Of a stretch of 61,277 nt of DNA, positions 2,839 to 35,633 are shown piece by piece. The first letter of the stretch is position 1. Every line of letters begins with the position of its first letter. Location of the stretch: positions 1 to 61,277 of IMG/VR virus record IMGVR_UViG_3300027533_000023; one strand, written 5' to 3'. Position numbers and translations under genes: made by a program. The stretch is from a virus. Its lineage: Duplodnaviria > Caudoviricetes. Under the pieces are notes generated by a model, which was given only the letters and a program-made list of their open reading frames with translations, was not told the DNA's origin and made no database searches.

Positions 2839-3633
2839 TTATTTTATAAATATTACCCCACTGGCGTTACCACCGAAATCAAAAGACAAGCTAGTCGGTG
2901 GGAAGGCGTCCATTTTCACTTCTACCTCACTCCTGACCAACTCCCCACCTGTATCGTAAATCCATACCTGTACTGTAGGTGTATCCCCGTACATATCTGT
3001 CATTCCCTGTGTATAAGGAAGGACTAAAGACGACATATTACTAAATGTTATTCTTGATGGTGTACAGTTAGCACCTGTAGGTGGTGGGTTTGGTGGCTCC
3101 CCTCCTGTTCCTCCACCAGGAACTGAATCAGGAGAGCTATAACAGTAGTTAAACCCAAAGGCGTTATCATTACTACCGTATTCGATAACAGTAGTAAAGC
3201 ACCCATCACCAACTCTTTCGAACCTATTAGAACTATATGAAAAATCTTCACCGAGCGCGTTAAGAAGAATAACAACTTTAAAGCACTGCCCAATAGTAAC
3301 TACATCCATGAATCCTGGAAAACCATGTGTCCAGTTACATAACAAATCGGTATCGCTTATCCTGAATCTTTCTACCTGCTCTATGAACTCCAATATTACT
3401 TCCTCAGTTAGTTCATCCTCGCTAGTATCTACTAGCCCAACAGTTATCCCGGTATTACCAAACTCAGCCAGCTCGTCAATTTCCTCCTCAGTACCCTGTA
3501 TCACAAACTGGAACGCCACATCATCATCCTGATAGACTGGTAAGGTAGCCCGTACTGTCCCGAAAATACAGTGCTCTACATCCTGAGTTGCGAATTGCAC
3601 AAATGATCCTGATGGTGCTATTATTGTTGCCAT
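2839..3633 (-). CDS. Tail-associated structural protein
   Basis: Position in tail-tip cluster; acidic beta-rich; Pro/Gly linker before a small C-terminal domain. Confidence 0.55.
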   Translation of the reverse strand: MATIIAPSGSFVQFATQDVEHCIFGTVRATLPVYQDDDVAFQFVIQGTEEEIDELAEFGNTGITVGLVDTSEDELTEEVILEFIEQVERFRISDTDLLCNWTHGFPGFMDVVTIGQCFKVVILLNALGEDFSYSSNRFERVGDGCFTTVIEYGSNDNAFGFNYCYSSPDSVPGGGTGGEPPNPPPTGANCTPSRITFSNMSSLVLPYTQGMTDMYGDTPTVQVWIYDTGGELVRSEVEVKMDAFPPTSLSFDFGGNASGVIFIK

Positions 3634-3634
3634 T

Positions 3635-8800: not shown

Positions 8801-9069
8801 ATTCCCTGCTCAAAATCCTGAACGAACTTACTACTAACCTGCTTACTAGCTACCGCTAGCCCTTCAAGCGATTTCTTAACAGGGGATAGGTTATTATTAA
8901 CATTCTTTAACGCAGTAGCCTGAGCGTTCAGCTGTGTATTAGTAGCCTTAAAAGATTCTGCTAACTTCTTATCTATGTTGCCGGATTTCTCCAGCACAGA
9001 TAGTGTAGATTCTAGCTGGGAGGGGTCAGCGATGAACTCAATGAATACCTGTTCGGTTGTAAGCGGCAT
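5851..9069 (-). CDS. Tail tape measure protein
   Basis: 1072 aa, Ala/Gln/Lys/Glu-rich helical, MAANPIGIVAV motif, hydrophobic segments, preceded by frameshifted chaperone pair. Confidence 0.92.
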   Translation of the reverse strand: MPLTTEQVFIEFIADPSQLESTLSVLEKSGNIDKKLAESFKATNTQLNAQATALKNVNNNLSPVKKSLEGLAVASKQVSSKFVQDFEQGIIAELKKSGVGIDQFKAKLDSLKGNTAFQNLQAELVKTATRIAQTMQKLEAMKSSGAGVGAFKQLEKQLIEDQKLIKQIEIDIRNVLEVESTEDPLRQVGEGSERASKKILSVKAELRGLREEIQRAIANGTNFGKEFDELTEKAGALEDAMKDAADTIKTVGSDTRTLEGLVGVAQGVTGAFAIAQGTAALFGDESEELQKTLLKVNAAMAILQGLQSIQNLLQKESAAAILVQTTLRKIENAQIVLTNALESKSIIVRYAAAAAQRVLNAVMAANPIGIVAVALAGLITLLNTYGASAAKAAQQTSILTAALKEGQEGAQARLDDEAQRNKNAIEDLKNKGAVQSEIDKQELESLKQQQTLEEENINRLTLIKSQTTKADKDQRKQLDDQLRQLEESRSKRSSEIINKEFALRKTLNKEEVAARVSTIENSLLVAKEGSEKQLNLQKSLIAARAQQEAAADGLLEEQRRTILINAQKEQEQLQADFNRRKLEAQAANIENQLVNVKEGSREELRLKQELIDKQIAIDLTNTKLTEQEKLNIKEKGLQDQLKLTKEYSLLFTKAEFEAEIDKNNAELALRQTSEDQKLQLQIDNINYAAGIEIAAAEGNAEKIDAIWAKSEEDILNLKINRIREVAELEIANAAADNGVLSRRLQKIAANERESIDIRAAAIHELAEMDIAAIDTRIGALDDIKDVAGQLNEKELAEYKKLQDDKKAVTEKALQDEKDLRGQHIKEIIEFAAQQLQAIGGIIGGLNDIANEQDQQRIAGMREALKQAQESGSITEKEAIARAKKIDAEERKIKKQAAERDKQLALFNAVISTAAGIAKAIPNPVLIAFAAAIGAAQIALIAARPIPKFYRGKKKGDNYEGFASVGEFAPELIERNGKMMLTNKPTITWVGKKDIVYNPQETAAMLGKNGHRVNKELMMIKDKGGKFVFDYKKLGKEISKNSKDVTINVDADGIHTQEGMNKINYFNSRYTFK

Positions 9070-9352
9070 TATTTTCTTTTAGGCGTTTCATTTGTTCAAG
9101 TTTATTATCGAGCATCCGGTAATACTCAATCAGTGGGATTTTTAAATACTCTTGCACTTTAACCGGATCATTCTCTGCTAACAGGTATATCTGCTGCTCC
9201 CTTTCCTCTACTCCTTTACCGACAATATATCTGTAAGAACCTTGTGGTGTATTTTGTCTATCTCCTTTGCCACCTGAAAATATATTTGTGAATTTTCCTC
9301 TGGCATAGTCAAAGACGGAATCAAGTTTTTTAACGGCGTCTTCAAAAAAAAA
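9038..9352 (-). CDS. Tail assembly chaperone -1 frameshift extension (gpGT-like)
   Basis: The overlapping ORF 9038..9379 is the -1 frame entered at the T9 run (A9 at 9344-9352 on +). Confidence 0.75.
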   Translation of the reverse strand, partial: FFFEDAVKKLDSVFDYARGKFTNIFSGGKGDRQNTPQGSYRYIVGKGVEEREQQIYLLAENDPVKVQEYLKIPLIEYYRMLDNKLEQMKRLKENNAAYNRTGIH

Positions 9353-9795
9353 TCGAGAGTACCTCCAGCCTCTTTCCATATTTTAATCTTCTTTTCTGCG
9401 TACTCAAAATCGTAATTAAATCTACTCTCGCTATCGTCAAAAAATACTACACTCGCTAGCTTATAAATAAAGTCAGGTAAGGGCATAAGTTCCAACCGTT
9501 CCTTAAGATTACTATTTAACTGTGCGATATAGGTACACTCTTTAATACTTAGTTTTTTAAGATCAAGAATTTTATCCATCGCTCTCGTATGCAGCTCCAG
9601 GTATTCCCTTGTACATCTCATATTCATTTCCTCATAGACAGCTAGTGCTGCCATCTGCCTGCCTGTAGGTACTTCAAACTGGCTATCAAACATAAAGTAC
9701 GGCTTACCTCCTAACCTGAACGCCTCAACTTCGCGGTACTTGTTGTTAATTAAGCGCGTTCGTAACTTCCGCTGGAATAAACTTTTTAATTGCAT
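9208..9795 (-). CDS. Tail assembly chaperone (gpG-like)
   Basis: Upstream of tape measure; contains 9-T slippery run (GAT TTT TTT TTG). Confidence 0.75.
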   Translation of the reverse strand: MQLKSLFQRKLRTRLINNKYREVEAFRLGGKPYFMFDSQFEVPTGRQMAALAVYEEMNMRCTREYLELHTRAMDKILDLKKLSIKECTYIAQLNSNLKERLELMPLPDFIYKLASVVFFDDSESRFNYDFEYAEKKIKIWKEAGGTLDFFLKTPLKNLIPSLTMPEENSQIYFQVAKEIDKIHHKVLTDILSVKE

Positions 9796-9985
9796 CTTCT
9801 AACTCTGTTTCTGGCATCGCTACTGTTATCGCTTTGCCGTGGTTTTTTAATCGTACTTTCTTCTCTCTTTTACTCCAATATACTACATACGTCCCCTTCT
9901 TATATTTATCCGTTTTCGGCCCCATGCAGGTACACCGTCCACTGTATCTAAATCCATATAAGAGTAATATTTCAGCTACTGTCAT
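9746..9985 (-). CDS. Hypothetical protein
   Basis: Translationally coupled ORF in operon. Confidence 0.55.
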   Translation of the reverse strand: MTVAEILLLYGFRYSGRCTCMGPKTDKYKKGTYVVYWSKREKKVRLKNHGKAITVAMPETELEDAIKKFIPAEVTNALN

Positions 9986-10191
9986 GATTTATTTTTTTCC
10001 CAATCAGCATCGAACCAAGTATCTGGTATACTTCTCAGGTATTCAAAAAATCCTTTTTCTATATGCTCAGGCACGTCATTATTCTTGCAATAATCTTCCC
10101 ACAATATCCCTAGCCCTCCTTTAGAAAGCACCTCCTTCAGCTTCTCTCGGACCATGTCCCACTGTATCTCAAAACTAACCGAGGTCGACAT
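9982..10191 (-). CDS. Hypothetical protein
   Basis: Coupled ORF in operon. Confidence 0.55.
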   Translation of the reverse strand: MSTSVSFEIQWDMVREKLKEVLSKGGLGILWEDYCKNNDVPEHIEKGFFEYLRSIPDTWFDADWEKNKS

Positions 10192-10390
10192 TTTTTTCTG
10201 TATTTACTGCGTTTAGATAATGTTTCATAAAGTCTATTACTATAACATAAGCGTCAGGATCAGTAAGAGATAATCTCGGGCCGCTTCTTTGGTTATAAAA
10301 ATGAAATGCTTTTATCCAATCAGAAGTCGGTTGTTTAGTAGACCTTACTATCCGAGAGTATAAAAGCTCCATCTCTAATAACTTTGTCAT
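10175..10390 (-). CDS. Hypothetical protein, paralog of 10387..10611
   Basis: Shared DWxKAFxFYN motif. Confidence 0.6.
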   Translation of the reverse strand: MTKLLEMELLYSRIVRSTKQPTSDWIKAFHFYNQRSGPRLSLTDPDAYVIVIDFMKHYLNAVNTEKNVDLG

Positions 10391-10611
10391 TCTGCTGGTT
10401 CAGATTCGTTAATAAAACTTTTCATATACCATAATACTTTTCTATAACATGGGCGGCAACCTTGATGTAAATCACGTTCATCCGGATGCCCATAATTATA
10501 AAAGTCAAAAGCCTTCTGCCAATCCTTACTAGGATATATCCGAGTAAAGCCAGCTCTACTGTGCTCGTCAACCAATTTTATAAATAATTTTTCTATTTCT
10601 TCTTTACTCAT
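10387..10611 (-). CDS. Hypothetical protein with CxxC
   Basis: DWQKAFDFYN...GCRPCYRKV. Confidence 0.6.
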   Translation of the reverse strand: MSKEEIEKLFIKLVDEHSRAGFTRIYPSKDWQKAFDFYNYGHPDERDLHQGCRPCYRKVLWYMKSFINESEPAE

Positions 10612-10901
10612 TTATCCGGTTCTAGTTTATTAATAGTTGCGTTTATCCCCATCGCGACAATAACTGTTATTAACCACTCCTGCCAATGCTGCCCCCAGAA
10701 TAGCCAGTATATAGCACTACCCCACCAGAATGTCATACAGACGTTACAGGAGTATAATGGCGGCTGTAAGTACTCCGGTATATACTTATCTCCATACTTA
10801 GTAACAAAGCCGAAAATCTCACCTTCTTGCATCGTATACCATATAGATAATACCGTCATCGCTATAATAAATGCCTTTCCTATAAGAGCTATCTCTACCA
10901 T
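10608..10901 (-). CDS. Small membrane protein (DUF1360-like)
   Basis: Hydrophobic segments and LYSCNVCMTFWW (CxxC-x-x-FW) motif. Confidence 0.6.
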   Translation of the reverse strand: MVEIALIGKAFIIAMTVLSIWYTMQEGEIFGFVTKYGDKYIPEYLQPPLYSCNVCMTFWWGSAIYWLFWGQHWQEWLITVIVAMGINATINKLEPDK

Positions 10902-11047
10902 TTTGTGAATTTTAATATTGGCGTTAAGATCATAGGCAAAAATATTGCTAGCGTTAACGCTACTACAATACAGATAACGATGATCATTATCTGGTCAAAA
11001 GTAAATTTTGGCTTTGGTTGTTCGGGTAGTTTTTTAACAATCGGCAT
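10895..11047 (-). CDS. Small single-TM protein (not in ORF track)
   Basis: MPIVKKLPEQPKPKFTFDQIMIIVICIVVALTLAIFLPMILTPILKFTKW fills the operon gap. Confidence 0.55.
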   Translation of the reverse strand: MPIVKKLPEQPKPKFTFDQIMIIVICIVVALTLAIFLPMILTPILKFTKW

Positions 11048-11066
11048 AGGGGTTAAATTTATAGGG

Positions 11067-11495
11067 TTATACAATTTTAATTATTCCTGTTGCTAGCCCT
11101 CCATGGTCTACATAAATCCTTGTCGGCACCGGCTGCCCGTAAATACTAATCCTGCTCAACGCTCCCAGAATCTGAAAACCTTCTAATCCTAAGTAATAAT
11201 ACACCCACACTGTCGGAGAATTACCATGCTGCAGATAAAGACTTGGTGTATAGGTTATATCGCTGAATAGCTGATTAGTAAAATGAATTACTGTCGGCTC
11301 TACGCAACATATTTCCTGACCTTCTATACATTCTGTCCCATATAATCCTGTTCCGTAGTTCTCAGGTACTATAAAGTCATCACTGTCATCTTCTACAATA
11401 AGCGGATTTGGAACAGCTAGTGTGTCTGTTTCGTGTGCGATGTACTCGATAGAGAGGTCTTCGCAAAACGGTCCGCTTATTGAGTCGATGGGCAT
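11067..11495 (-). CDS. Structural protein; C-terminal domain paralogous to 2839..3633
   Basis: Shared C-x(1-2)-P...FxN...YT...GxxPTV...PT...DxGGxAxGxIxI pattern. Confidence 0.6.
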   Translation of the reverse strand: MPIDSISGPFCEDLSIEYIAHETDTLAVPNPLIVEDDSDDFIVPENYGTGLYGTECIEGQEICCVEPTVIHFTNQLFSDITYTPSLYLQHGNSPTVWVYYYLGLEGFQILGALSRISIYGQPVPTRIYVDHGGLATGIIKIV

Positions 11496-11497
11496 CT

Positions 11498-11647
11498 TTA
11501 TACGTCCTCAGGTTTTGTCATCATCAGTTTTTTTATTTCCTCGTTTAGCTGGCTAGATTTCTGCTGCCAGAATTGTGCGTTAGCAAGAGCGTCATACGCC
11601 TGTACTTTTAGTTCGTTTAGTTGCACTTTTTTTTGTTCTTCAGTCAT
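11498..11647 (-). CDS. Small coiled-coil protein, possible tail fibre chaperone (not in ORF track)
   Basis: MTEEQKKVQLNELKVQAYDALANAQFWQQKSSQLNEEIKKLMMTKPEDV, directly after a fibre gene. Confidence 0.55.
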   Translation of the reverse strand: MTEEQKKVQLNELKVQAYDALANAQFWQQKSSQLNEEIKKLMMTKPEDV

Positions 11648-11663
11648 ATATTATAATTAAAAA

Positions 11664-13517
11664 TTAGAATGCTGCCCATGCTACCTTTACCCACGTTCCG
11701 GATATTTTTCTATACCACAAAAAGTTATTATCCATAGTAAGTGAACCTAATGGCTTTGCTGCATCAGTTGAATTAGCTGGGGTAAAGGTGTCTATAATAT
11801 GTAATGTTCCTACTGTAATACCAACCCCACCTGTAGCCGCCAAAACTATATTATCATCCTCTGCTTTTATCTGAGTTGGCACACCCGCAACCTGTACTAC
11901 TAAATCAATGGCGTTATCTGTTATACTTAAGTCTGCACGATCGCTAGTACCTGCATCTAATACAGCTCCCATAGCCGCCGTTATACCTGATAACCAAAAA
12001 TATCTAACTGGATCAGCAAAGGTTTCATCACCATGAAAAGCATAAACCCCATCGGTGGTACTCATTTTAACAGCGCCCTTAGTACCGAAATAATCTATAT
12101 CACCAACTCTGAAAGTAGCAATTTTAGATATATCACCAGTATCAGTAGTTTGTACTTTGAAAGCTGCCTTTTGAAATTCTATTTCTTCATCAGTAACCCC
12201 TGTATTAATATTAAATGTAAAAGTAGATAGTGCAAAAGTTCTATTTTCAGCAGCAGTATCGTCTTCAGTAGCAAACCCAAACCTTGTTGAAGCTCCACCA
12301 CCTAAGTCGTCTAAATCTACTTCGATAACATTCCCAGAAGCATCCACGGCTAGTGCAAAAGTCGGTGTCCCAGTAAAAGTACCTGAGCCGTATGTATGTG
12401 CAGTAAGCTGACCAGTACCATTAAGCGTCAGCTGCTTGGTCATATTCGTCTCTCTACTAGTCCAAAACTCAAAGTTAGATGTAAAACTTACTAGTAATGG
12501 ATCAGCCCATGCAGTAGCTATTCTACTTGCTGTAATACCTCCACCAGATGCTCTTGTTAAAGACACATCTACGCTAGCAGCAAATCCAACATCTGGAGTA
12601 TCGCTTGTACTTCTTGTAATAAGAACTACAGTTGCACGGTCATTAGTTCCAGTGCCAGAAGTATCAAATTGGCCACCACGGCCACCGTCACTAGCACTTC
12701 CCTGAACAGCGTTACCAGTCGTAGAAACTCCTTGAAGAGCTGTAGCATTTCCAGTTACATAAAATTGCCCTGCTGGGCTATCTATGGAAGTAGCAGTAAT
12801 TGCCCCTCCAGAACCTGTATTTGCGACTCTTAGCACTCCATACCCATCGTTAATAGTTCCAAAGAGAGAAAGATAAAATGTATCTGTATCTATAAGAGTA
12901 GCTTCTATTAGAAAACCACCTAGCCTTCCAATATTTGTATATGGCGGACTATATAACCCATTTTCTAATTCCATGGTTCCCCCACCGCCTGCACCGTATG
13001 TAAGAGCACCAGTTATACTATCGTAGTAGACTATACTGCCTGTTGTAGCTGCAACAAGATTAGGTATTAGCACATTACCAGAAGTATTATTTATTGATAT
13101 CTGAGTATCAGAAACTAATACCTGCGAAACTGTTACTCCTGATACCGCAACTATCATCTCAGCAAAATCTGCGTATGCATTTATATCAGTTCTATTATTA
13201 GCGTCTGTTGCCGAGCCTATACTTGTCGCTGCATTTGTCATAAACAGATACCTTACCGGAGCAGCAAAAGTAGAATCACCGTTATATAAAGCGAGAGAAA
13301 AAGTATCTGGCATTGTAAACACTCTATCTTCTGCTGCAGTATCATCCTCACCAGAAAAGCCAAACCTGGTAACTGTACCATCTTCACCTTCAAAATCACT
13401 AGCTAGTATCCTGTAATTCACCCATGGGTTATCCTCTTCAACCGGTACGATAATCGGTATATAAGCCCCAGTGAGGTCACCCACATAAGGGGTCATCGCC
13501 GATATCTTAACTGGCAT
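11664..13517 (-). CDS. Tail fibre-like protein with internal duplication
   Basis: Gly/Thr/Ala-rich; MPVKISAM start; C-terminal MDNNFLWYRKISGTWVKVAW fibre-type end; duplicated TRFGFxxEDDTAAExRxF. Confidence 0.75.
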   Translation of the reverse strand: MPVKISAMTPYVGDLTGAYIPIIVPVEEDNPWVNYRILASDFEGEDGTVTRFGFSGEDDTAAEDRVFTMPDTFSLALYNGDSTFAAPVRYLFMTNAATSIGSATDANNRTDINAYADFAEMIVAVSGVTVSQVLVSDTQISINNTSGNVLIPNLVAATTGSIVYYDSITGALTYGAGGGGTMELENGLYSPPYTNIGRLGGFLIEATLIDTDTFYLSLFGTINDGYGVLRVANTGSGGAITATSIDSPAGQFYVTGNATALQGVSTTGNAVQGSASDGGRGGQFDTSGTGTNDRATVVLITRSTSDTPDVGFAASVDVSLTRASGGGITASRIATAWADPLLVSFTSNFEFWTSRETNMTKQLTLNGTGQLTAHTYGSGTFTGTPTFALAVDASGNVIEVDLDDLGGGASTRFGFATEDDTAAENRTFALSTFTFNINTGVTDEEIEFQKAAFKVQTTDTGDISKIATFRVGDIDYFGTKGAVKMSTTDGVYAFHGDETFADPVRYFWLSGITAAMGAVLDAGTSDRADLSITDNAIDLVVQVAGVPTQIKAEDDNIVLAATGGVGITVGTLHIIDTFTPANSTDAAKPLGSLTMDNNFLWYRKISGTWVKVAWAAF

Positions 13518-13532
13518 ATTTAATATTTTTTA

Positions 13533-15515
13533 TCATTGTTTCAATAATACTTTAGAGCTATAAGCCGGTATCGTTACTGATGTCGTATAGGTCACATTCT
13601 TAACGTCTTTATAGGTATCAGCTCCTAAGAGAACTACCTTAGCCACTGCTGTCTCATTATATTCAAATCTTATATCTGTTATCGCCGCGACAAACGCTAA
13701 TGCTTTAGACGAGCCTACGTCATTACTCGTCGCTGTTTTCCAGGTAGCTAAACTATAATAATTGAATACGCTACTGTTAACACTTGTTACTAAAAAAGGT
13801 GCGTTAGGAGCTACCGAAGGAGAGGTCGCGTCATCTATCGGTCTCGTATACCAGTTATTAGTGAAAGTTCCCATCGTAGGATAGTAAGCTACTGCTGTTC
13901 CTGTAGTATTTGTCCTGTGTATCCTTTGTGTTATTGCTTTGGCAACATAGATATTATTAGTGAATGTATTATTCGTAGTTAATAATCCTCCTGAGCCATT
14001 AGCCTGCAGGACAATAGTATTATCAGCATCGTAGAAGGTGTTACCGAAAATATTATTATTCTTAGCTCCTGAGTTAAGATACATACACGAATACCCAAAC
14101 CCTGCTGCTGAATTACTGTCTACCTGTACACCAGCAGAATTATTATCCAAGTAAATAGCGTGCGATAATCCATAGGTCTGAGTTGTACCCGCTACTGAAG
14201 GGCGTGAATAGAGAATAGTGTTTTTTGTTACCCTCGTTCCTGTATTCGTGAAGTTATAGGTATAAATTCCGCCACCATCCATCTTCGTCATATTAAAGTA
14301 GGTGATAAAGTTATACCTGATCGTATTGGTAAGCCCTGCGAAGAAAATAGGTATATATCCTGTGCTATCTATTGTATTCTTCTCTATTAAAGCCCCTGTC
14401 GCCTGTACCCTGATAGCCATCATCTGACCGTCCCCACCTCTACCCATCCCTGGCTGCATAGCTGTATTATCAAAAGTATTATTTTGGATAAGCGAGCTGG
14501 TAAATTCCTCCCTTAGTAGAATCGCGTTATTATTAGTATGGTTAAATGTATTGTTGAGGAATTTAAAGTTAGCTGAAGATGAACCTCCGTTAGCACCTCC
14601 CCATATCCCATCCATCCCAGCGAAGTCAAACTGGCAATTCTGGATAGTGATATTAGCACTTGACATAATCGTAAAATGATCCTTATTAGAACCAGTAAAC
14701 TTCATATCCTGTATTGTTATATTACCCCTGTTTGACGGTATCCTGACTAATGTATCTATCGTCGTTACCTGGGCGTCAGAAGGTGCGCATGCAGCAAATA
14801 TCCTTAACTTCTTAGTCGTCGGGTTAAAGTACCACTCATTAGGCTGGTCTAATGTTCTTGGGTCGTTCTGGATAAATAGCCCGTAACCTGATATCCCTGT
14901 ATAGCTTGTAGGATTAGGTGTATTAGTATGAGTTAGTACCGTTCCTGAATGGGCAGTTACCGTATTCATATCGGTCACCCAGTGGTGTAGCCTCATCACT
15001 GCTGTAGCTCCTGTCCAGTTAGTAGTAGATGACGGTAGACCCGAAACTGTCTTGGTCGTTAGTGTAGGCGCTGTATAGGTAAGATATCCGGTATTTGGGT
15101 ATCTACCCATTGGAATATTCACCCCGTTAATAACGACCATATTCACCGTAGTAAGTGTTGTAACAGCTACTGAGCTTTCCCATATATTAGACCCTACAAG
15201 TTGCCACCCTGTTATCGTTTGAAAACCTGTGATAATAGGATTAGCGCCTGTCCCGTAAGCTCCTATTACTATCGGATTACCAACACCACCAGCTTTGTTC
15301 AGGTACATATTGCCGTAGAAAACATCACCCCTGTTAAAGAGGATTATATCACCAGCTACCCTGGCAGGAAATATCGAGTTAAATTTCGCTAGTGTTTTCC
15401 ATGGAGAACCTGCGGACGTTCCAGTGTTAGCATCATTACCTCCAGCAGCAAAGTAAAAAGTAGCAGCCTGAGCTTTTAATGATAAAAAAAGAAATATTAA
15501 TAGTATATACTTCAT
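13533..15515 (-). CDS. Right-handed parallel beta-helix protein with N-terminal signal peptide (depolymerase-like)
   Basis: MKYILLIFLFLSLKAQA signal; GNDANTGTS...PWKTL, GRYPN, DGGGIY, IYLD motifs and Asn-ladder repeats. Confidence 0.8.
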   Translation of the reverse strand: MKYILLIFLFLSLKAQAATFYFAAGGNDANTGTSAGSPWKTLAKFNSIFPARVAGDIILFNRGDVFYGNMYLNKAGGVGNPIVIGAYGTGANPIITGFQTITGWQLVGSNIWESSVAVTTLTTVNMVVINGVNIPMGRYPNTGYLTYTAPTLTTKTVSGLPSSTTNWTGATAVMRLHHWVTDMNTVTAHSGTVLTHTNTPNPTSYTGISGYGLFIQNDPRTLDQPNEWYFNPTTKKLRIFAACAPSDAQVTTIDTLVRIPSNRGNITIQDMKFTGSNKDHFTIMSSANITIQNCQFDFAGMDGIWGGANGGSSSANFKFLNNTFNHTNNNAILLREEFTSSLIQNNTFDNTAMQPGMGRGGDGQMMAIRVQATGALIEKNTIDSTGYIPIFFAGLTNTIRYNFITYFNMTKMDGGGIYTYNFTNTGTRVTKNTILYSRPSVAGTTQTYGLSHAIYLDNNSAGVQVDSNSAAGFGYSCMYLNSGAKNNNIFGNTFYDADNTIVLQANGSGGLLTTNNTFTNNIYVAKAITQRIHRTNTTGTAVAYYPTMGTFTNNWYTRPIDDATSPSVAPNAPFLVTSVNSSVFNYYSLATWKTATSNDVGSSKALAFVAAITDIRFEYNETAVAKVVLLGADTYKDVKNVTYTTSVTIPAYSSKVLLKQ

Positions 15516-15521
15516 AAATTT

Positions 15522-18500
15522 TTAATATAATGCTAAGTAAAATTTAACTGCACTTCCTGATAATGAACTCATGTTAATAGAAGACGCCAAAGCAGTACTG
15601 CTAAGTACCCCAAACATTTTAACATTAGCTGTTATATCTGCAACGTTATGATTAGCACTACCAATAGCTGTTGAACCGATGTTAGGCGCTGTAACCTGTG
15701 CTGAGTTATTATAGATCAAAGCCACATAGTAAATACCTTTTGTAGCTGCATAAGTTCCTGTAAATGCTATTGTTCGCATAGATGCTCCTGCCTGTTTCCA
15801 GTTATTGCCGTCGTTGGCAGAAATAGCTACCCTCGTTAACGTACTTCCCGAAAAACTATATAATGCAACTGCATTCTCATTATCTGCTGTGAAATTTCCT
15901 GCTGTAGAAGAGTAAAATACTACCCCTGTTATAGTAGCTGTTGGAACTTCGATAGCACCTACCCAAACCTGCCCATCTGTTAATGCGGTATTTGTACCCA
16001 TACTACCTCTTGTAACCCCATACGGTTCTGCGATAATAGTTGAACCTAAAGTCCGCATCAACCGCACACTATCAGAATACCGATCATCTACATACGCAGT
16101 TGTTGCGATCTTCGTAGAATTATCGTTAGCCGCCTGTGTAGGTGCTGTTGGTGAGCCTGTTAGGGCAGGAGAAATAGAAAAAACTAATGATCCTGCTGTT
16201 CCTGTCTCATCTGTTATAGCTGCTAATAAATTTGCACTCGATGGAGTAGCTAAGAAAGTGCCTACTCCTGTTCCTGGTGTTATCCCTGCCCACGTAGTAA
16301 GATCAGAATCTAATGGCTGATATGCTGCTGAAGCTGCACCAGTAGTTAAGTAGGTAGATGTATCAAGGGTAATATTACCACTAGCATCACTTACAAGAAG
16401 TCCTGCAGTATAAGCAGCTAATTGTAAAGTTCGGTTTGCCTTAAAGAGCGCTGCCTGCCCTGTATCAGTGTGGATTTCTACTATTCCGGCAGTTGCCTGA
16501 ATCTTAATATCCCCGACACTAGCAGTAAGGTTAAAATTTGTTAATCCGCTACCGCCCATTAGCATATCTATACTTGCCCCATTAGCGTATATATCAAAAT
16601 TACAGGTTGGCCCACCACCACCGATTTCTCCATAACCACCAGAACTATCTCCAGAGAGTAAATAAGCAAATCCTGTAGAACTCTGAGCGTTAATTTCAAC
16701 CTCTGTGCCTTCCAGGGTAAAATCAGCTTGTTCAGCATTAGCGTGTGTTGTTCCGTATAGACTTAAAGAAAGAGCAGCAGCACCATCTGTAAGACCAGAC
16801 AGGTGACTTGATCCTGCTGTATTATAGTTTTCGAAAATAATTTCAGTACGTCCCGTATGATCCTTGCTTGCAGCAATCTCATTAGTAATAACGTTAAATC
16901 TTGTTGAAGTTAATGTAGCTACCCCCTCTTTAAGTAGTTTGCCTGTTATACTATCAAAGAGAGCAAGTGAATTATCAGTAGCTGAGGCTGGCCCAACTAC
17001 ATCACCGGAACCACTTGCATTTGTCTCCCATGTAGCATCCCCGTCAGCATCCGAGGTTAGTACCTTGCCAGCTCCAGGTGATCCTCCTGTTATCTTTACT
17101 GTTGCAAACGTAGCTAACATTGCTACATTTAACGGTCCGGCGAAATTAGACTTGGCAGCTGTCTGGCTATCAATAGCGAAATCTCCAGCTGCAGCTCCTG
17201 AAGTGCTAGGAATCATGATCGCCTTATTCGTAGTTGCTCCAGTAGCTGTAAAGTAACCTGCCCTATTTTCTCCTGCCCCACTACCTGCTACATCGACTAG
17301 CAGCCCGAAATTTGTTCCTGTAGCTCTTGTGTTGTCTATATAGGCTGTAATATTCTTATCGCCATTACGTACATCTAACCAGCCCAAAGGCGCATCCTCT
17401 GCAGCTCCACTCATCAGCGGCTTATAGAATTGGCTCTTAGTATCAAATACCTTAAAAGAAGTAATAGAGTTAGTAATAAAAGAATGTGGGGTATCCCCTA
17501 AGTTAGTATACTCTGTAGCTGAGGTACTAGCCTTCAGATGCATAATATCCGCAGCAGCACTTGTCCTGAACCACAACTTGGCGAAAGTAGCATCACCATT
17601 CAGGTAAACATCTTTCGGTGCTTCTATCCACCCTAAATCCCTGAAGTCAGCATATATATCTGTTGGTATTGATCCTATCTTCTCAAACTTAAGAGCGTCA
17701 CTAGTAGCGGAAATCTGAAAGTAATTGCTCGCCTCTGGGTTAGTCGAAAACTTGATAGAATCTGTTCCCAAATCCTGCACAATAGCATTACCCTCTTTAT
17801 AAATAATAGCTAACGGCTCAGCTATCCTGCCACCCTGACTAGCGATAGTCCGAGTAGTTTCTACAGTAATATTATTAGCGTCTATATACGCTGTGATCTT
17901 ATCTGCGTAAGCATAACCTCCGCCAGTTCCTAAGTTACCCCAACAAAAATATTTACCGACGTCTGTAGGGAAAAAAGTGTTGATAGGATCATTCACTGTC
18001 GTGCCTGTCTGGCTAGCATCATAGTCTCTTACGTTATTCCAGCCTATAATTAAATCACCCTGGTTATTAAGCCTCATCTTCTCACTGTTCGGCCACACTG
18101 GGCCGAGCTCAAACCTGATAAAGCCGTTTGGTATATCTGAAAATACAGGCGCATAAGGGAGAGTTGCCCCAACAAAGTTATTATTACCGATTATCGTTCC
18201 AGCACTACCGGCTAAGGAATATAATTGAAATGTATTAGCATACCCGTATGTAGCATTATAGTCTTTATCGTGCTTAACAATAGCACCACCTTCAAAGTTA
18301 AAGTCATCATCATCATTCTCTGCTTTCCACTCTGCCAAAGCAAAGCTCTGTGTACTAGGTACAAAAGTTGATCTGATCAGAAGTTTAAGGCGGTCATCAG
18401 CAATAGTCTGTGTAGTACCGATCTTAATAGCCTCAGGAATAGTCAGCGTGCCTGTATTGCTAAGTATAGCAAGACTGTCTTTTAGTAGCTTGCCTGTAAT

Positions 18501-18791
18501 ACCGTCGAATCTTACTACTGCGTTATCAGTAGATGAGGCTGGGCCGGTTACATCTCCAGCACCATCGAGTGCAGTATCTATATAATTTATAAGATCCGTC
18601 TGGTCGGTAATATCACCGGTAATAGTTCCCCATTCTCCAGCTCCATCAGCTCCGGGTGGTCCAGGCTCTCCTTGCTCTCCCTGAGCACCAGGTGGACCAG
18701 TTAGTATTATTTGAGTAACTACTAACCTAAATGCGTTTTCCCCTATCGCGTAGACCTTATAAAGTGGCGGGGCTTGGGTTATTACATTCAT
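15522..18791 (-). CDS. Long tail fibre protein with short collagen-like segment
   Basis: GPPGAQGEQGEPGPPGADG; twice GDVxGPASxTDN; PALTGSPTAPT...TKIATTAYV fibre motif. Confidence 0.85.
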   Translation of the reverse strand: MNVITQAPPLYKVYAIGENAFRLVVTQIILTGPPGAQGEQGEPGPPGADGAGEWGTITGDITDQTDLINYIDTALDGAGDVTGPASSTDNAVVRFDGITGKLLKDSLAILSNTGTLTIPEAIKIGTTQTIADDRLKLLIRSTFVPSTQSFALAEWKAENDDDDFNFEGGAIVKHDKDYNATYGYANTFQLYSLAGSAGTIIGNNNFVGATLPYAPVFSDIPNGFIRFELGPVWPNSEKMRLNNQGDLIIGWNNVRDYDASQTGTTVNDPINTFFPTDVGKYFCWGNLGTGGGYAYADKITAYIDANNITVETTRTIASQGGRIAEPLAIIYKEGNAIVQDLGTDSIKFSTNPEASNYFQISATSDALKFEKIGSIPTDIYADFRDLGWIEAPKDVYLNGDATFAKLWFRTSAAADIMHLKASTSATEYTNLGDTPHSFITNSITSFKVFDTKSQFYKPLMSGAAEDAPLGWLDVRNGDKNITAYIDNTRATGTNFGLLVDVAGSGAGENRAGYFTATGATTNKAIMIPSTSGAAAGDFAIDSQTAAKSNFAGPLNVAMLATFATVKITGGSPGAGKVLTSDADGDATWETNASGSGDVVGPASATDNSLALFDSITGKLLKEGVATLTSTRFNVITNEIAASKDHTGRTEIIFENYNTAGSSHLSGLTDGAAALSLSLYGTTHANAEQADFTLEGTEVEINAQSSTGFAYLLSGDSSGGYGEIGGGGPTCNFDIYANGASIDMLMGGSGLTNFNLTASVGDIKIQATAGIVEIHTDTGQAALFKANRTLQLAAYTAGLLVSDASGNITLDTSTYLTTGAASAAYQPLDSDLTTWAGITPGTGVGTFLATPSSANLLAAITDETGTAGSLVFSISPALTGSPTAPTQAANDNSTKIATTAYVDDRYSDSVRLMRTLGSTIIAEPYGVTRGSMGTNTALTDGQVWVGAIEVPTATITGVVFYSSTAGNFTADNENAVALYSFSGSTLTRVAISANDGNNWKQAGASMRTIAFTGTYAATKGIYYVALIYNNSAQVTAPNIGSTAIGSANHNVADITANVKMFGVLSSTALASSINMSSLSGSAVKFYLALY

Positions 18792-19189
18792 GATGGGATA
18801 CGGCTTTGGGATGCTACAATGTCAACTACTGTCTTAAGAACTATATTAGCTGTATCAGCATCTATATCCTGCCGTACATCACCGTAATAGGTGCGTCTTT
18901 TAAGCCCATGTGTCTTTGGGATAAATAAGGATATTGTCCACCCGCTAAGTTCCTCTCCATCTACATCTAAAGTATCGGCAACTACCTCTAAGCCATCGCC
19001 TTGCGCGATAGTCATGATAGGGCAATCCCCCCTTTCGTCAGTAGCTAGTGTAAATAAAAAAACGCCGTCAGATAAGTCTAACGGTGCTGGGTAAAATACA
19101 CTAAATTGAATAGAGGTATCGATCTGGGCAATTACGGGTATACAGGGTGCATTATCGTAATTAAGAACGCAGTTATTGGTACAAGCCAT
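18788..19189 (-). CDS. Fibre adaptor / baseplate-upper-like protein
   Basis: Immediately upstream of the fibre; beta-sandwich-like pattern with TYYGDV. Confidence 0.5.
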   Translation of the reverse strand: MACTNNCVLNYDNAPCIPVIAQIDTSIQFSVFYPAPLDLSDGVFLFTLATDERGDCPIMTIAQGDGLEVVADTLDVDGEELSGWTISLFIPKTHGLKRRTYYGDVRQDIDADTANIVLKTVVDIVASQSRIPS

Positions 19190-19279
19190 ACACCTTATAA
19201 GGTAAAACTGTTAAAAGGGGGTGTATTATGAAGCTCCATTTAGCCTCATCGGGTGACGTGGCAGCCTATTCTCTCACAG

Positions 19280-19290
19280 ATATAAATTTA
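19280..19290 (-). promoter_or_regulatory. Putative late promoter element TAAATTTATAT
   Basis: Identical 11-mer upstream of both structural operons (also 48941-48951). Confidence 0.45.
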
Positions 19291-19331
19291 ATAACTTTTT
19301 TAATACTTAATTAAAATATTTATATTTAACC

Positions 19332-19423
19332 TGTTATTGGTTGATTTAAATTGCTGTTTTCTGTATTTTCTAGGTCTATTAAGGTTTAATGGGGAGCTGC
19401 TCAATAAAATGGGCAGCTTTTTT
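19332..19423 (+). ncRNA. Putative small RNA, array unit 1
   Basis: TATATTTA box at 19321-19328, U-rich body, terminator AGCTGCTCA-ATAAAA-TGGGCAGCT followed by a T-run. Confidence 0.5.
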
Positions 19424-19458
19424 ATTTTTTTATCTAATTTATTATATTAGCTTAGTAC

Positions 19459-19555
19459 TTCATAAATACTTTCTATTCTAGTTCTACCATCTCCGGTAGA
19501 CCGATCAAAACGATTCAAAACACAGTACCGAGCCCTATTTCTATAGGGCTTTTTT
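19459..19555 (+). ncRNA. Putative small RNA, array unit 2
   Basis: TATATTAGCTTAG box, TCTACC..GGTAGA hairpin, AAAACAC, terminator AGCCCTAT-TTCT-ATAGGGCT followed by a T-run. Confidence 0.55.
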
Positions 19556-19578
19556 ATTTTATTATACTAACTTAGTAC

Positions 19579-19647
19579 CAAGGGACTACTAATATGGTAG
19601 TTTTGCATTGAAGAAAACACGAGCCTCGTTTCCACGGGGCTTTTTTT
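19579..19647 (+). ncRNA. Putative small RNA, array unit 3
   Basis: TATACTAACTTAG box, ACTACT..GGTAGT hairpin, AAAACAC, terminator GCCTCGT-TTCC-ACGGGGC-T7. Confidence 0.55.
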
Positions 19648-19658
19648 AAATCCCCTTT

Positions 19659-19811
19659 ATGACTGATACAGAACTGCAACAAGCTATCTTAAGATTGAAA
19701 GCTAAGTACTTAACTCCTGAGCGGCTTAAGGAGGAATTAGCTAAATTATACCCCCACCTACCTCCTGAGGACATAGATAATATCGCTAAATCTATGCAGA
19801 GGAAAAAATAA
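19659..19811 (+). CDS. Small hypothetical protein (50 aa, not in ORF track)
   Basis: MTDTELQQAILRLKAKYLTPERLKEELAKLYPHLPPEDIDNIAKSMQRKK. Confidence 0.5.
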   Translation: MTDTELQQAILRLKAKYLTPERLKEELAKLYPHLPPEDIDNIAKSMQRKK

Positions 19812-19832
19812 TTACGAGAATTATTATAAAAA

Positions 19833-19866
19833 ATTAGGTTAGTATATTATTTTATACTTATCTTTA
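19833..19866 (+). promoter_or_regulatory. Phage promoter: ATTAGGTTAGTATA + -7 box TATCTTTA
   Basis: One of six copies of the motif, upstream of + strand small genes. Confidence 0.75.
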
Positions 19867-19884
19867 GTTTTTAATAAGAAATAT

Positions 19885-20061
19885 ATGAAACTTGTTTTTG
19901 GATCAAAAGAGAAAGGCGCAAAGATTCAGTTTACAGAAACGTGGGGATACAGAGTAACTGATTATATAAACACCAAAGATGGTCGCCCAACTTCGACTAT
20001 TTATACAACTTTACAAGACGCACAAGCTAAATACTCTGAAATATTAAATACTAAAAAATGA
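19885..20061 (+). CDS. Small hypothetical protein (58 aa)
   Basis: First ORF after promoter; ATGA overlap with the next ORF. Confidence 0.55.
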   Translation: MKLVFGSKEKGAKIQFTETWGYRVTDYINTKDGRPTSTIYTTLQDAQAKYSEILNTKK

Positions 20062-20213
20062 AACGCTTTATTCTTTTCCTAATTATCCTCTCTCTCTTCG
20101 CCTCTTGTGTACCTGCGCGTGAGGGGTTTGTACGTAGGCAGACTACAGGCTCGGCTTATAACAAGCACGGAGAATACAGGGAACGTACTTCAATACCGAC
20201 ATTAGGAAGATAA
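20058..20213 (+). CDS. Small lipoprotein (51 aa)
   Basis: MKRFILFLIILSLFAS-C lipoprotein signal. Confidence 0.6.
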   Translation: MKRFILFLIILSLFASCVPAREGFVRRQTTGSAYNKHGEYRERTSIPTLGR

Positions 20214-20231
20214 ACTTTAAACCTTAATAAA

Positions 20232-20459
20232 ATGACAACCGAAACAATCAACCAAAAGTACCAGGACGAAGAAACGCTGATCGAGTACGAAACAAGGGCA
20301 GCATTAATGGTGATGAGGCAATATGGCGGAGGATTTAATGACCTTACATATAGCCTTATTCGCAATGCTCCCAAGATGCGAGACACGCTCTTGGTTCTCT
20401 TAAATAACGTTAAGATGTCAGATTCCATGCAGCAATTAATAGTAGACTCAATAAAATAG
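20232..20459 (+). CDS. Hypothetical protein
   Basis: A-rich start context, operon position. Confidence 0.6.
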   Translation: MTTETINQKYQDEETLIEYETRAALMVMRQYGGGFNDLTYSLIRNAPKMRDTLLVLLNNVKMSDSMQQLIVDSIK

Positions 20460-20464
20460 ATTTT

Positions 20465-20770
20465 ATGAACCAGACAGAGATTTTTCAGAACAGCCCATTC
20501 CTTCGCCTACATGCACAGATTGAGGGTTCTGATCCTGAAACGGAAAGAGATCATTTAGCTATAAAAGACTTGATGAAGAAGCGGGATCAAATGTGTAGTG
20601 ACCTTACAATCGGCAAGGGCATCAATCCTGAAAGTGTAGAGAAGATGAAAGCGATATGCGAAAAGCTAATCTCTATTGTATCATATCAAGTTGGCGCACC
20701 GAGTATCTTATCACAAGTAATTGAATTATCGGCAGAAGCCAAAGAAGCATTAAAAGCCGCTAAACTATAA
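20465..20770 (+). CDS. Hypothetical protein
   Basis: Operon position. Confidence 0.6.
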   Translation: MNQTEIFQNSPFLRLHAQIEGSDPETERDHLAIKDLMKKRDQMCSDLTIGKGINPESVEKMKAICEKLISIVSYQVGAPSILSQVIELSAEAKEALKAAKL

Positions 20771-20796
20771 CCGATAACCTGTAATACACATATACA

Positions 20797-20982
20797 ATGA
20801 GAACTTACTTAGGATACTTCTTCCACACCTTCAGAAACTATACCGAAGACAAGCAGTACAAACTTATTGAGGCAGAAAATAGAGAGAAAGCAGTTGAAAA
20901 GTTTAAAGCGTTTTTGAGTGAGAATGAGGAAGATGGAAACATTCCGGAAAGTTGCACTTTTTACGTAGATGAAATTCTATAA
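20797..20982 (+). CDS. Hypothetical protein
   Basis: IEAENREKAVEKF small phage protein pattern. Confidence 0.55.
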   Translation: MRTYLGYFFHTFRNYTEDKQYKLIEAENREKAVEKFKAFLSENEEDGNIPESCTFYVDEIL

Positions 20983-21167
20983 CATGAGAAATATATTTTG
21001 GAATCTCGGCTGCCTTTACGGGCATATTATTAACTTCTTTAAAGCGTTTATATGAAAGAGTTTTTTAATCCTGTTTGCGTTCCGTTTTGGGTAATTTGGC
21101 TTATGTGTACATTACTTGGAACCTTTATAGGAATTGTATTAGCTAACTTATTAATAAAACTAAAACG

Positions 21168-21668
21168 ATGAAACAGCTATTTATTATCGCCTTATCAGCT
21201 CTCCTACTCTCCTGCCAGAAGGAAGTACTCCAACCATCTATTACTTCTCAGGTCGCATCAAACGCCGTTTTAAGGGCTAAGGGCAGCGAGGATTTACCCA
21301 TTGAGTATTTACTCTACAACGATTGCACCGCCGAGTGGGTAGTGGTAGAAATCGTTATAGCGTACAAATTCAACTACTTTACTACAAAGGATGACTTTCA
21401 TGCTAATGCTACCTATGGTATTAAAGGAATTGCAATAGGGCAGACCTCAGGCAATATCTATAAGCTAACCGGCAAGACCTTAGATATTGAGAAGTTCAAG
21501 AACTACCAAACAACCGAGAACCAAGTGTTCAGGGTAACAACTACCCTTACCTTTAAAACTCCTGACGGTCAGGACTGGGTAACTACAGGAACACGGATCC
21601 GTAGGATACTAGCCGACGGGACTATTGTAACAGATATAGAATCGCAAACAGCTTACTGCAAAAATTAG
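21168..21668 (+). CDS. Lipoprotein, beta-rich
   Basis: MKQLFIIALSALLLS-CQKE Bacteroidota-type lipoprotein signal. Confidence 0.75.
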   Translation: MKQLFIIALSALLLSCQKEVLQPSITSQVASNAVLRAKGSEDLPIEYLLYNDCTAEWVVVEIVIAYKFNYFTTKDDFHANATYGIKGIAIGQTSGNIYKLTGKTLDIEKFKNYQTTENQVFRVTTTLTFKTPDGQDWVTTGTRIRRILADGTIVTDIESQTAYCKN

Positions 21669-21813: not shown

Positions 21814-23151
21814 TCAAAACTTCATAATTGACTTGTGGAAGGTATTTAAGTAGTACCTCCAGTGGTCAAGGTGGTCAGCTCTTTTCTTCGGGTTAGAGCG
21901 ATCACCTTTGTCTATATCCCCCATCTCGTCTACACTCACATACTGGCAATCAAAAATTAAGTCTTTAGCCCCCTCAGGATCAAACGCTACATCCATCTTC
22001 TTAAAAGCCGCGTTTACCAGCACTCTATTCTCTTTTACAATAGGGTTCACTGTAGGCACCCTTATCTGCCTGTCTGTGAGCTGTAGTTCGTTTTTAATGA
22101 TAGTATAGTAGTTCATATCATCGTGAACCATGGCGCTGCTATTGCGTCCTGTAGCGTCTCCAGTCACCACATATAAATACTCGGTTGGCGGGTACCAAAC
22201 CTTTATCTCTGTACACAGCTTATAAATATCACTATTCGGCAGCTTAAAAGCCTTCGGGCATATGATATGGTTACCCCAGTGCTGGTATACCCCGCACGTT
22301 ATCGGGTTTACGTTAAAGTCAAAGCTCAGGTAAAGCTCCATGCTCCTGTTTACCGTTACTGCTCTTTTATGCTTAGCAAGGTCAAAGGCAAAGGCGTACG
22401 GATCTCCTACTTTCCTATTACCCCACTTACCTAAAGTAAACACCTGGTAATAGTACGGATCCAGCTCAGACAGGTATTCAAGAAAAGCTCTCCGCACATC
22501 TGTACACCATGGATTGTCGTGGTAGGTAGTATGCGTACTCTGGTACATAAACTCAATCGTTACCTCACCAACCTGTACTGGCCAGGTATTAGTAAAGGTG
22601 CTGTAAATATCTCCCTTATACGGCTCGTAGAACGTCTTATACAGCCAGAAATCTTCGTAGTTGCTATCGCTCTCAGGGTTATAGGTAAACCACGTCTTCA
22701 CCCGTCCTATATTCGTTCTCAGGGTACTCATCAGGACAATAAAGTCATCCATATCTAACTGGTTGCCTTCCTCTACCCATGCGTGGCTAATATTACTCAG
22801 TGACTTTATCTTCCCTGGCTCGTCAAATCCTTTAGCGATAAACTTGTTGCCGTTTATATTACATCTTATCTCTAACGGGGAAATATTGAAGGTAAAGAGG
22901 TGATCAATCTTCCAGTATTCTGCTACATCTTTAATCGTTTGCCACTGGCTCTCCTTAATCGTGTTGAATACCTTTCTTGCCAGTACACAGCGGAAGTATT
23001 TAGACCTGAGACAGTCAACAAGAAGTTTACTAGCTACATACCGGCTTTTGCCAGAATCACGGCCGCCGTATAGGAAGTCGATATCATTATTGTTAATATG
23101 GAGATGCCTGTAGCAGGGTAGAAATGCCTCTTTAGGCAGATTAATAGTCAT
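21814..23151 (-). CDS. terL: Terminase large subunit, PBSX family
   Basis: Walker A YGGRDSGKS, Walker B WVEE, TYNP motif III, nuclease FDFN and DHLD. Confidence 0.95.
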   Translation of the reverse strand: MTINLPKEAFLPCYRHLHINNNDIDFLYGGRDSGKSRYVASKLLVDCLRSKYFRCVLARKVFNTIKESQWQTIKDVAEYWKIDHLFTFNISPLEIRCNINGNKFIAKGFDEPGKIKSLSNISHAWVEEGNQLDMDDFIVLMSTLRTNIGRVKTWFTYNPESDSNYEDFWLYKTFYEPYKGDIYSTFTNTWPVQVGEVTIEFMYQSTHTTYHDNPWCTDVRRAFLEYLSELDPYYYQVFTLGKWGNRKVGDPYAFAFDLAKHKRAVTVNRSMELYLSFDFNVNPITCGVYQHWGNHIICPKAFKLPNSDIYKLCTEIKVWYPPTEYLYVVTGDATGRNSSAMVHDDMNYYTIIKNELQLTDRQIRVPTVNPIVKENRVLVNAAFKKMDVAFDPEGAKDLIFDCQYVSVDEMGDIDKGDRSNPKKRADHLDHWRYYLNTFHKSIMKF

Positions 23152-35600: not shown

Positions 35601-35633
35601 AAAAAACTGGCAACCTGTAGAAACAGTTACCAG
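35601..35633 (-). terminator. Intrinsic terminator with TTCT loop
   Basis: CTGGTAACTGT-TTCT-ACAGGTTGCCAG-T6. Confidence 0.8.

Follow-up and report, generated by a model that had tools for sequence, protein, structure and literature searches.

Short RNAs that lie between a promoter and an intrinsic terminator are found in the phages lambda (oop) and P22 (sar), where they are cis-antisense to an overlapping gene. Other systems with a related layout are outlined here. GibS, an intergenic small RNA of Bacteroides, combines a 5' part that is single-stranded with meta-stable hairpins, a linear stretch and a Rho-independent terminator (PMC7366714). The primary sigma factor of Bacteroidota (sigma-ABfr) has a -7 consensus TAnnTTTG, while a -33 element was not identifiable in Flavobacterium johnsoniae (PMC7366714). 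Promoter-early stem-loop cassettes (PeSLs) combine strong promoters with terminating stem-loops; they reside in hyperplastic regions, where they drive shuffling, and typically flank small open reading frames (ORFs) (PMC2839356). In the CRISPR RNA (crRNA)-like anti-CRISPR RNA CracrVA1, one repeat-like hairpin and a spacer-like part of ca. 21 nt are flanked by a native promoter and a rho-independent terminator, and arrays of Cracr units exist (bioRxiv 10.1101/2024.10.29.618823). Here, we analyze a tandem array of three predicted small RNA units in a Caudoviricetes phage, represented by the IMG/VR virus record IMGVR_UViG_3300027533_000023. The whole record (61,277 bp, with a completeness estimate of 98%) is referred to as the window.

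According to our best reading, the array RNAs would be a new, lineage-restricted family of a kind that is itself known, either from small RNA genes of phages or Bacteroidota or from promoter-terminator cassettes. The family has neither a match in Rfam nor a relative outside one lineage. We assign a probability of about 0.5 to the statement that the array consists of independently transcribed small structured RNAs. Small RNAs of Bacteroidota phages are almost undescribed; in a term search of a 2025 review of phage-derived small RNAs, the strings "Bacteroid", "tandem" and "array" were absent.

Three units in a gene-less gap

The array (19300-19650) is located in the divergent gap 19190-19658, which is the longest intergenic stretch on a crude gene map of the genome. 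Every called gene from 108 to 19189 is on the - strand, and small + strand ORFs cluster from 19659 to 21668. In the kilobase around the gap, GC content is 0.34. The gap is free of gene-sized ORFs, and just two ORFs of at least 15 aa start with an ATG (28 aa and 30 aa). Neither frame nor length of these is maintained in the relatives of this phage (two metagenome contigs, L013 and L014, see below), so that small coding ORFs were dropped as an explanation of the units. On the - strand, no ORF of at least 40 aa was found in 19190-19645, and a 42-aa ORF (19646..19774) sits beneath the conserved + strand gene for a 50-aa protein.

Three units follow each other head-to-tail on the + strand, and each of them is closed by a strong intrinsic terminator (Table 1). 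The initial annotation had described a region without genes that holds three box-to-terminator units, and its boxes, terminators, shared scaffold and positions were all confirmed on the sequence. In a consensus scan, the + strand terminators were placed at 19391-19422, 19530-19551 and 19621-19642. These are three of the six sites between 17000 and 22000 (shuffled mean 3.3). Strong terminators number eight in the whole genome (four per strand), and the array supplies three of the four on the + strand. There is no + strand gene upstream for 19 kb, and thus the array terminators can serve only transcripts that start inside the gap. Such transcripts were predicted to extend from a few bases past each box to the terminator, with the start of unit 2 assumed to be at 19459.

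Units 2 and 3 have in common the promoter core TATAy-TAnCTTAG, a CTAC/GTAG hairpin and a GAGCC...GGGC terminator. Their relationship is also evident from direct repeats, one over the boxes (29 nt, 83%, 19430-19458 and 19550-19578) and one over the terminators (27 nt, 78%, 19529-19555 and 19620-19646). Just two copies of the hairpin motif CTACY-N4-7-RGTAG are present in the genome (19484 and 19586; shuffled mean 0.67). Part of what had been taken as a scaffold is the terminator itself, because AAAACAC together with GAGCC is also found before the ordinary operon-end terminator at 44112(-). When folding was compared to shuffled sequences, z-scores of -3.26, -4.96 and -2.59 were obtained for units 1, 2 and 3, and 1, 0 and 3 of 200 shuffles, respectively, folded equally well.

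Table 1. Features of the array and of the adjacent sequence (positions refer to the window)
Feature	Position	Strand	Remarks
Unit 1, promoter-like -7 box TATATTTA	19321..19328	+	fits TAnnTTTr; kept in the array phage, L013 and L014
Unit 1, body	19334..19390	+	U-rich conserved core; TAAGGTTTAA just 5' of the terminator; presumed start
Unit 1, intrinsic terminator and T-run	19391..19428	+	13 pairs, loop of 6
Unit 2, promoter core TATAT-TAGCTTAG (box with TATA part: TATATTAGCTTAG)	19443..19455	+	aligns with the -7 core of six gene promoters
Unit 2, internal hairpin	19483..19500	+	6-bp stem, 6-nt loop
Unit 2, A-rich linker	19501..19529	+	predicted to be mostly single-stranded
Unit 2, intrinsic terminator and T-run	19530..19556	+	9 pairs, loop of 4
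Unit 3, promoter core TATAC-TAACTTAG (box with TATA part: TATACTAACTTAG)	19563..19575	+	same TAACTTAG box at gene promoter 35545(-)
Unit 3, internal hairpin ACTACT / GGTAGT	19585..19601	+	
Unit 3, intrinsic terminator and T-run	19621..19648	+	from the terminator scan
Gene for a 50-aa ORFan protein, no promoter of its own	19659..19811	+	11 nt between T-run and ATG
First full phage promoter (ATTAGGTTAGTATA upstream element and -7 box)	19833..19872	+	0 mismatches at 19833; kept in L014
Conserved 5' leader of the tail-fibre operon	19190..19290	-	left border of the gap, outside the array

Predicted promoters of the units

Gene promoters of this phage belong to a family that consists of ATTAGGTTA(G/A)TATA (the 14-nt upstream element), 11 nt ending in ATTATAn, and TAnnTT(T/A)(G/A). 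There are six of them, at 19833(+), 57135(+), 37790(-), 35570(-), 33344(-) and 25890(-). When aligned with this pattern, the boxes of units 2 and 3 match its downstream half (TATAy-TAnCTTAG). These two units are devoid of the upstream 14-mer, and its position is taken by the T-run of the preceding terminator. The motif TA.CTTAG has 13 matches in the genome, three of which are intergenic (unit 2, unit 3 and the gene promoter at 35545(-)), with intergenic sequence making up ca. 5.5% of the genome. For the extended core motif, five of the six genome matches are intergenic. Compared to the sigma-ABfr consensus TAnnTTTG, the TAnCTTAG boxes of units 2 and 3 differ at one position. Judged from these motifs, the array units appear to have credible promoters, which may be weaker or differently timed.

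Three of the six promoter copies are followed by an identical leader, AAACCTTTTATATG. An alternative assignment of this box in units 2 and 3, as an inverted copy of the upstream element that reads leftwards, was dropped, as no -7 box follows on the - strand.

The start codons of this phage are not preceded by Shine-Dalgarno motifs, and its promoters are of the Bacteroidota -7 type; the host is thus likely a member of the Bacteroidota. The large terminase subunit (TerL, encoded at 21814..23151(-)) has its best isolate match in Pseudanabaena phage Pan5 (47%, covering 64% of the query), and matches to Flavobacterium phages are at 24-26%. These matches name no host.

Comparison with two relatives

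A metagenome scan for relatives yielded two contigs. L013 extends over 187 nt of the gap and, within the array, reaches only the start of unit 1, and L014 covers the whole locus. Anatomy, conservation, covariation and the change in unit number of the array are read directly from the sequences. The flanking genes of the array phage and L014 differ at 24 of 62 four-fold sites (39%), and unconstrained sequence is thus expected to be ca. 61% identical. Whole-unit identities are 75%, 69% and 66% for units 1, 2 and 3, respectively. L014 has four units, compared to three in the array phage. Its extra unit is positioned between units 1 and 2 and has the same type of box and terminator, with a different hairpin and without a linker. 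Hairpin plus terminator is the predicted fold of each of the seven units present in the two genomes (z from -2.6 to -5.0).

Unit 1 has conserved blocks that are present in L014 and in part in L013; these carry one-base indels, which excludes coding. Its core and the TAAGGTTTAA segment are nearly unchanged in L014. In the terminator stem of unit 1, both bases are exchanged in four of the pairs, and the L014 copy folds alike. The hairpin of unit 2 is identical at 18 of 18 positions with diverged flanks, and its terminator is identical as well (44 nt for hairpin and terminator together). The linker in between has diverged and contains indels, with only the short blocks GATTCA and AAACACAG being retained. 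For unit 3, the hairpin stem is retained (with T-G replaced by C-G) but has a different loop, and the terminator shows one compensatory and one wobble change. The segment from hairpin to terminator has a length of 19 nt in unit 3 (21 nt in L014) and of 29 nt in unit 2 (31 nt in L014).

Five boxes of the type seen in units 2 and 3 are available from the two genomes (TAGCTTAG, TAACTTAG twice, TATCTTAG and TACCTTAG). All are TAnCTTAG; the fixed positions are constant, while all four bases occur at n. The corresponding five 5' segments have no block in common and, like the linkers, contain many substitutions and indels. In the terminator helix that these copies share, pairing is complete (45 of 45 cells) and two pairs carry changes on both sides, a result equaled by 8 of 500 shuffles. 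Covariation among homologs, which was to be looked for according to the initial annotation, is thus seen in the terminator stems when compared to L014.

Complementarity to translation starts

It had originally been proposed that the array encodes antisense RNAs with a constant scaffold and a variable guide, which block translation starts. The underlying assignment of separate, non-coding promoter-to-terminator units holds: the boxes match the phage -7 core, a common pattern is kept over five box copies, the terminators covary, and the number of units differs (three versus four). The guide function attributed to these units does not hold. Both of the reported complementarities are present as written, with a 12-mer of unit 2 (19456-19467) recurring at 15508-15519, at the start of the gene 13533..15515(-), and a 13-mer of unit 1 (19377-19389) being the reverse complement of 20217-20229. 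For an evaluation, the non-terminator parts of the predicted transcripts were compared to 95 phage start regions (-35 to +20). Among 100 dinucleotide shuffles, the fraction with a best duplex energy at least as good was 0.83, 0.89 and 0.12 for units 1, 2 and 3, respectively. The longest exact complement is a 9-mer for unit 2 (220 of 300 shuffles at least as long), a 10-mer for unit 3 (68 of 300) and a 13-mer for unit 1 (9 of 300, with no correction for the number of units, three). Pairing of units 2 and 3 is thus no better than that of shuffled sequence, and that of unit 1 is marginal. The 12-mer of unit 2 begins 3 nt before the assumed transcript start, and at least a 12-mer was reached by 10 of 300 shuffles. 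The segments considered as variable guides have indels and change between the genomes at about the level of silent sites, as would be expected of an unconstrained linker. Judged by the refuting condition of the initial annotation (complementarity no better than that of shuffled sequence), units 2 and 3 fail the start-codon model with respect to phage targets, and the model is weak for unit 1.

In its strongest form, the antisense model is restricted to unit 1 and the 3' end of the SSB operon (35601-35660(-)), where TAAGGTTTAA would pair with the ORF 20232 leader and, to a weaker extent, with the leaders of promoter-proximal genes that contain AAACCTT. The perfect 13-nt complement is positioned at -17 to -5 of ORF 20232. 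The 10-mer TAAGGTTTAA has three copies in the genome when both strands are considered, at 19380(+) and 35646(-), directly 5' of a terminator in both cases, and as the complement at 20217-20226. AAACCTT occurs in the leaders of four genes (20219, 57175, 37743(-) and 35531(-)), and L014 keeps the TAAGGTTTAA segment and 11 of the 13 target bases. However, the target site is followed by a different gene in L014, and when all mRNA sense sequence is taken into account, at least a 13-mer is reached by 17 of 100 shuffles. The motif is half palindromic (TTAA...TTAA) and can fold on itself, and pairing with the common AAACCTTTTATATG leaders, as read from the promoter sequences, amounts to just 7 bp. Together with duplex energies that do not exceed those of shuffles for any unit, and with no signal for units 2 and 3, this makes an antisense function at phage translation starts improbable even in the restricted form.

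The terminator of the SSB-like operon (35601-35660(-)) has a TTTCTA loop like the unit terminators and is preceded by the TAAGGTTTAA 10-mer, as is that of unit 1. This operon end could give rise to an RNA derived from the 3' untranslated region that shares the TAAGGTTTAA segment.

Database searches and sequencing runs

A blastn search with the gap against 50,697 phage records returned no match; at E <= 10, only terminators and T-runs were matched (E >= 0.2). At the gathering score, no Rfam family was found in the whole window. With the threshold lowered to E <= 10, the region 19150-19700 gave 14 matches that are driven by terminators and are far below the cut-offs, and RF04319 was not among them. 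ARAGORN detected no transfer RNA or transfer-messenger RNA gene in the window. The box motif has 11 matches in IMG/VR, none of which is followed by a hairpin and a terminator. Homologs of the 133-aa protein encoded next to the gap (P0005-P0008) are 51-64% identical.

Three DNA runs are near-identical where they cover the locus, and no indel or joint was seen in the array, with only run X22 spanning 19212-19574, while X19 and X23 have no contig over 19242-19643. One metatranscriptome run contained 0.07 of the sampled words.

Interpretation of the array and alternatives

The favored reading is that each unit would be transcribed independently and yield a short, structured non-coding RNA (ca. 70-100 nt, given a start a few bases past the box). 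Unit 1 would represent one type of RNA, and units 2 and 3, together with the extra unit of L014, would be paralogs of a second type. Units of this second type would have a host-type -7 core without upstream element, a short 5' segment, the CTAC/GTAG hairpin, a linker that is rich in A and single-stranded, and a strong terminator. The size of the array may change when its repeated terminator-promoter junctions undergo unequal exchange with each other. Unit 3 would double as the leader of the 50-aa gene, and its terminator would tune the output of this gene. The RNAs may act through their structure, in that they bind or titrate a protein of the host or the phage, or they may target host mRNAs via short seeds. 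Since conservation and selection are seen on hairpins and terminators and not on linkers, such an action is more likely than that of programmable guides against phage start codons. Transcription, the transcript ends and any action in trans are inferred.

Several observations weigh against small structured RNAs. The array units are devoid of the ATTAGGTTAGTATA element that is present in six of six gene promoters, and their promoters may thus be weak or require another factor. The linkers diverge with indels at about the silent-site level and look unconstrained. Only a single relative covers the array, and covariation outside the terminators is nearly nil. A palindrome in the DNA accounts equally well for the conservation of the hairpins. 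Among IMG/VR viral contigs, no relative was found with the 133-aa protein, a 1089-aa protein, TerL or the gap alignment as query, and IMG/VR scans with a whole-unit pattern and with a hairpin-plus-terminator pattern gave 0 matches each. The sole contig from an RNA library (269 nt) covers only 18918-19186, within the gene for the 133-aa protein, and no array unit. This contig may reflect expression or carried-over DNA and, being limited to that gene, is uninformative on expression of the units.

If the array is a set of PeSL-like cassettes, the selected repeat would be the terminator-promoter junction, which insulates and attenuates transcription at the head of a hyperplastic region and mediates shuffling, and the short bodies between the junctions would be by-products or emptied slots without action in trans. 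The repeats do span exactly this junction, from the terminator over the T-run to the box, divergence of the linkers is about that of silent sites, and the number of units differs (three versus four). The adjacent + strand cluster is hyperplastic, with the 58-aa gene being swapped in L014 and a different gene following that for the lipoprotein, and the 50-aa gene depends on read-through. However, there is no conserved ORF between the junctions of the array, and only the last junction precedes a gene (19659-19811). Other intergenic junctions of this phage lack the cassette. The bodies are conserved far beyond silent sites, which applies to the 18-nt hairpin, a 9-nt block in the 5' part of unit 2 and most of the body of unit 1. 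We regard PeSL-like cassettes as an unlikely, though not far-fetched, explanation of the array.

Units 2 and 3 can also be read as a repeat-like handle, a spacer-like segment of 19-31 nt and a terminator, as in the crRNA-like anti-CRISPR RNAs (Cracr and Racr). They would then load a type V (Cas12a-like) effector of the host and either titrate it or direct repression of its own promoter. They share the anatomy of CracrVA1, i.e. their own promoter, a handle, a segment and a terminator (bioRxiv 10.1101/2024.10.29.618823). The hairpin-to-terminator lengths given above fall into this range, the spacer-like parts, but not the handle, vary from one genome to the other, and the locus heads a variable cluster of small ORFans. 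The stem of unit 2 (TCTAC/GTAGA) is that of a Cas12a repeat printed in the methods of PMC11697453. However, its loop has 6 nt and the bases that flank the stem differ from that repeat (PMC11697453), the outer pair differs in unit 3, and the extra unit of L014 has another hairpin and no spacer-like part. The exact 18-nt hairpin has five matches in 185,579 species genomes, all of them single, in unrelated taxa and outside of arrays, and two chance matches inside coding DNA in IMG/VR contigs. The target phyla of Cracr candidates, as listed in the source, do not include Bacteroidota (bioRxiv 10.1101/2024.10.29.618823). We thus regard a loading of host effectors by units 2 and 3 as very improbable. 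Equally doubtful is the wider function that would go with it, namely stand-alone, self-terminated guides that hijack a host effector to silence it, to silence another defense or to compete with crRNAs. An element that acts at the level of DNA appears still more remote, be it palindromes that serve as operators for a dimeric regulator or a gap that serves as a replication or packaging site. The gap is the largest and most AT-rich of the genome and is 2.2 kb from the terminase gene, and the inverted repeat CTACY-N5-6-RGTAG is located 9-27 bp past the boxes. However, the palindrome occurs at no other promoter, and one copy pairs only via a T-G wobble, which fits RNA but not a DNA symmetry. In addition, the T-runs of the terminators are strand-specific, and there are no iteron-type short direct repeats beyond those of the units.

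The 50-aa gene and the adjacent clusters

The T-run of unit 3 ends 11 nt before the ATG of the 50-aa gene. As this gene has no promoter of its own, it can be reached only by read-through of the unit 3 terminator, which makes unit 3 also its leader and attenuator. Compared to L014, there are four non-synonymous and nine synonymous codon differences in 51 codons. Neither PHROGs nor Pfam assigned a family to the 50-aa protein, and the neighboring small proteins were likewise without match. Among 5.8 billion proteins, only one (P0009, 98%) is near-identical.

The promoter at 19833..19872 precedes the remaining small genes on the + strand and marks the right border of the locus. The 58-aa gene at 19885-20061 is replaced in L014 by an unrelated 58-aa ORF (L014:622-798(-)), with no alignment between them at E <= 100. 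The replaced gene is flanked by a promoter and a small lipoprotein-like gene that are both conserved, and the gene that follows the latter likewise differs. The + strand cluster is a hyperplastic, mosaic ORFan cluster. The ORF 20058-20213(+) codes for 51 aa with a lipoprotein-type signal (a hydrophobic stretch ending in ...FASC) and is conserved in L014; its product could be a small membrane or exclusion protein.

To the left of the gap, the tail-fibre operon on the - strand begins with the ORF for the 133-aa protein (18788..19189); a beta-helix tailspike-like protein is encoded further along that strand, at 13533..15515(-). The leader of the operon (19190-19290) is nearly identical in the array phage, L013 and L014, despite 39% silent-site divergence. 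In its consensus fold, an 8-bp hairpin is accompanied by a small hairpin next to the start codon, the latter with one compensatory change, and the 28-aa + strand ORF over this leader is not retained. The leader is probably a regulatory RNA. A terminator-like hairpin with a T-run (19065-19084(-)) is located within the 133-aa ORF, on the coding strand of the latter, and may be a chance occurrence or an internal attenuator.

Comparison with known systems

The locus is a compact and bounded candidate, with host-type promoters, strong terminators, conserved hairpins, rapid change in copy number and a position at the head of an ORFan cluster. As an array of small RNAs, it is plausible but unproven. 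Binding of the hairpins to a host factor or a Cas effector, if it occurs, would make the locus a new device for counter-defense or take-over. In the case of crRNA-like units, Cracr-type counter-defense would extend to Bacteroidota, with a new layout of one promoter per guide.

The array differs from lambda oop and P22 sar in that there is no gene on the strand opposite to it. With the small RNAs GibS and FopS (RF04319), it shares a sigma-ABfr-type -7 promoter, a length of ca. 65-100 nt, hairpins combined with single-stranded parts, and a Rho-independent terminator (PMC7366714, PMC11697453). Even at E <= 10, the array has no match to the RF04319 covariance model, and it is not counted as a member of this family. 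FopS also occurs as multicopy paralogs, and one copy is reported in a phage (PMC11697453). FopS has a conserved 5' seed (R1/R1') and its copies are dispersed. In the array, the 5' parts are the least conserved, the internal hairpin is conserved, and the units are arranged head-to-tail.

Cracr (bioRxiv 10.1101/2024.10.29.618823) and Racr (PMC10651486) resemble the array in that a handle, a variable segment and a terminator are combined, in that such units are stacked, and in their location in an accessory phage region. Here, a promoter and a terminator are present for each unit instead of a shared array transcript, and the hairpins differ from each other and, in loop and flanks, from the Cas12a repeat. 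The PeSLs of T4-type phages (PMC2839356) are similar as a repeated module of promoter and terminator stem-loop among small ORFans, and also because changes in copy number or content between close relatives are attributable to cassette exchange. PeSLs use sigma-70 boxes and typically flank small ORFs, whereas the slots of the array are ORF-free, contain conserved hairpins and are headed by promoters of the Bacteroidota type.

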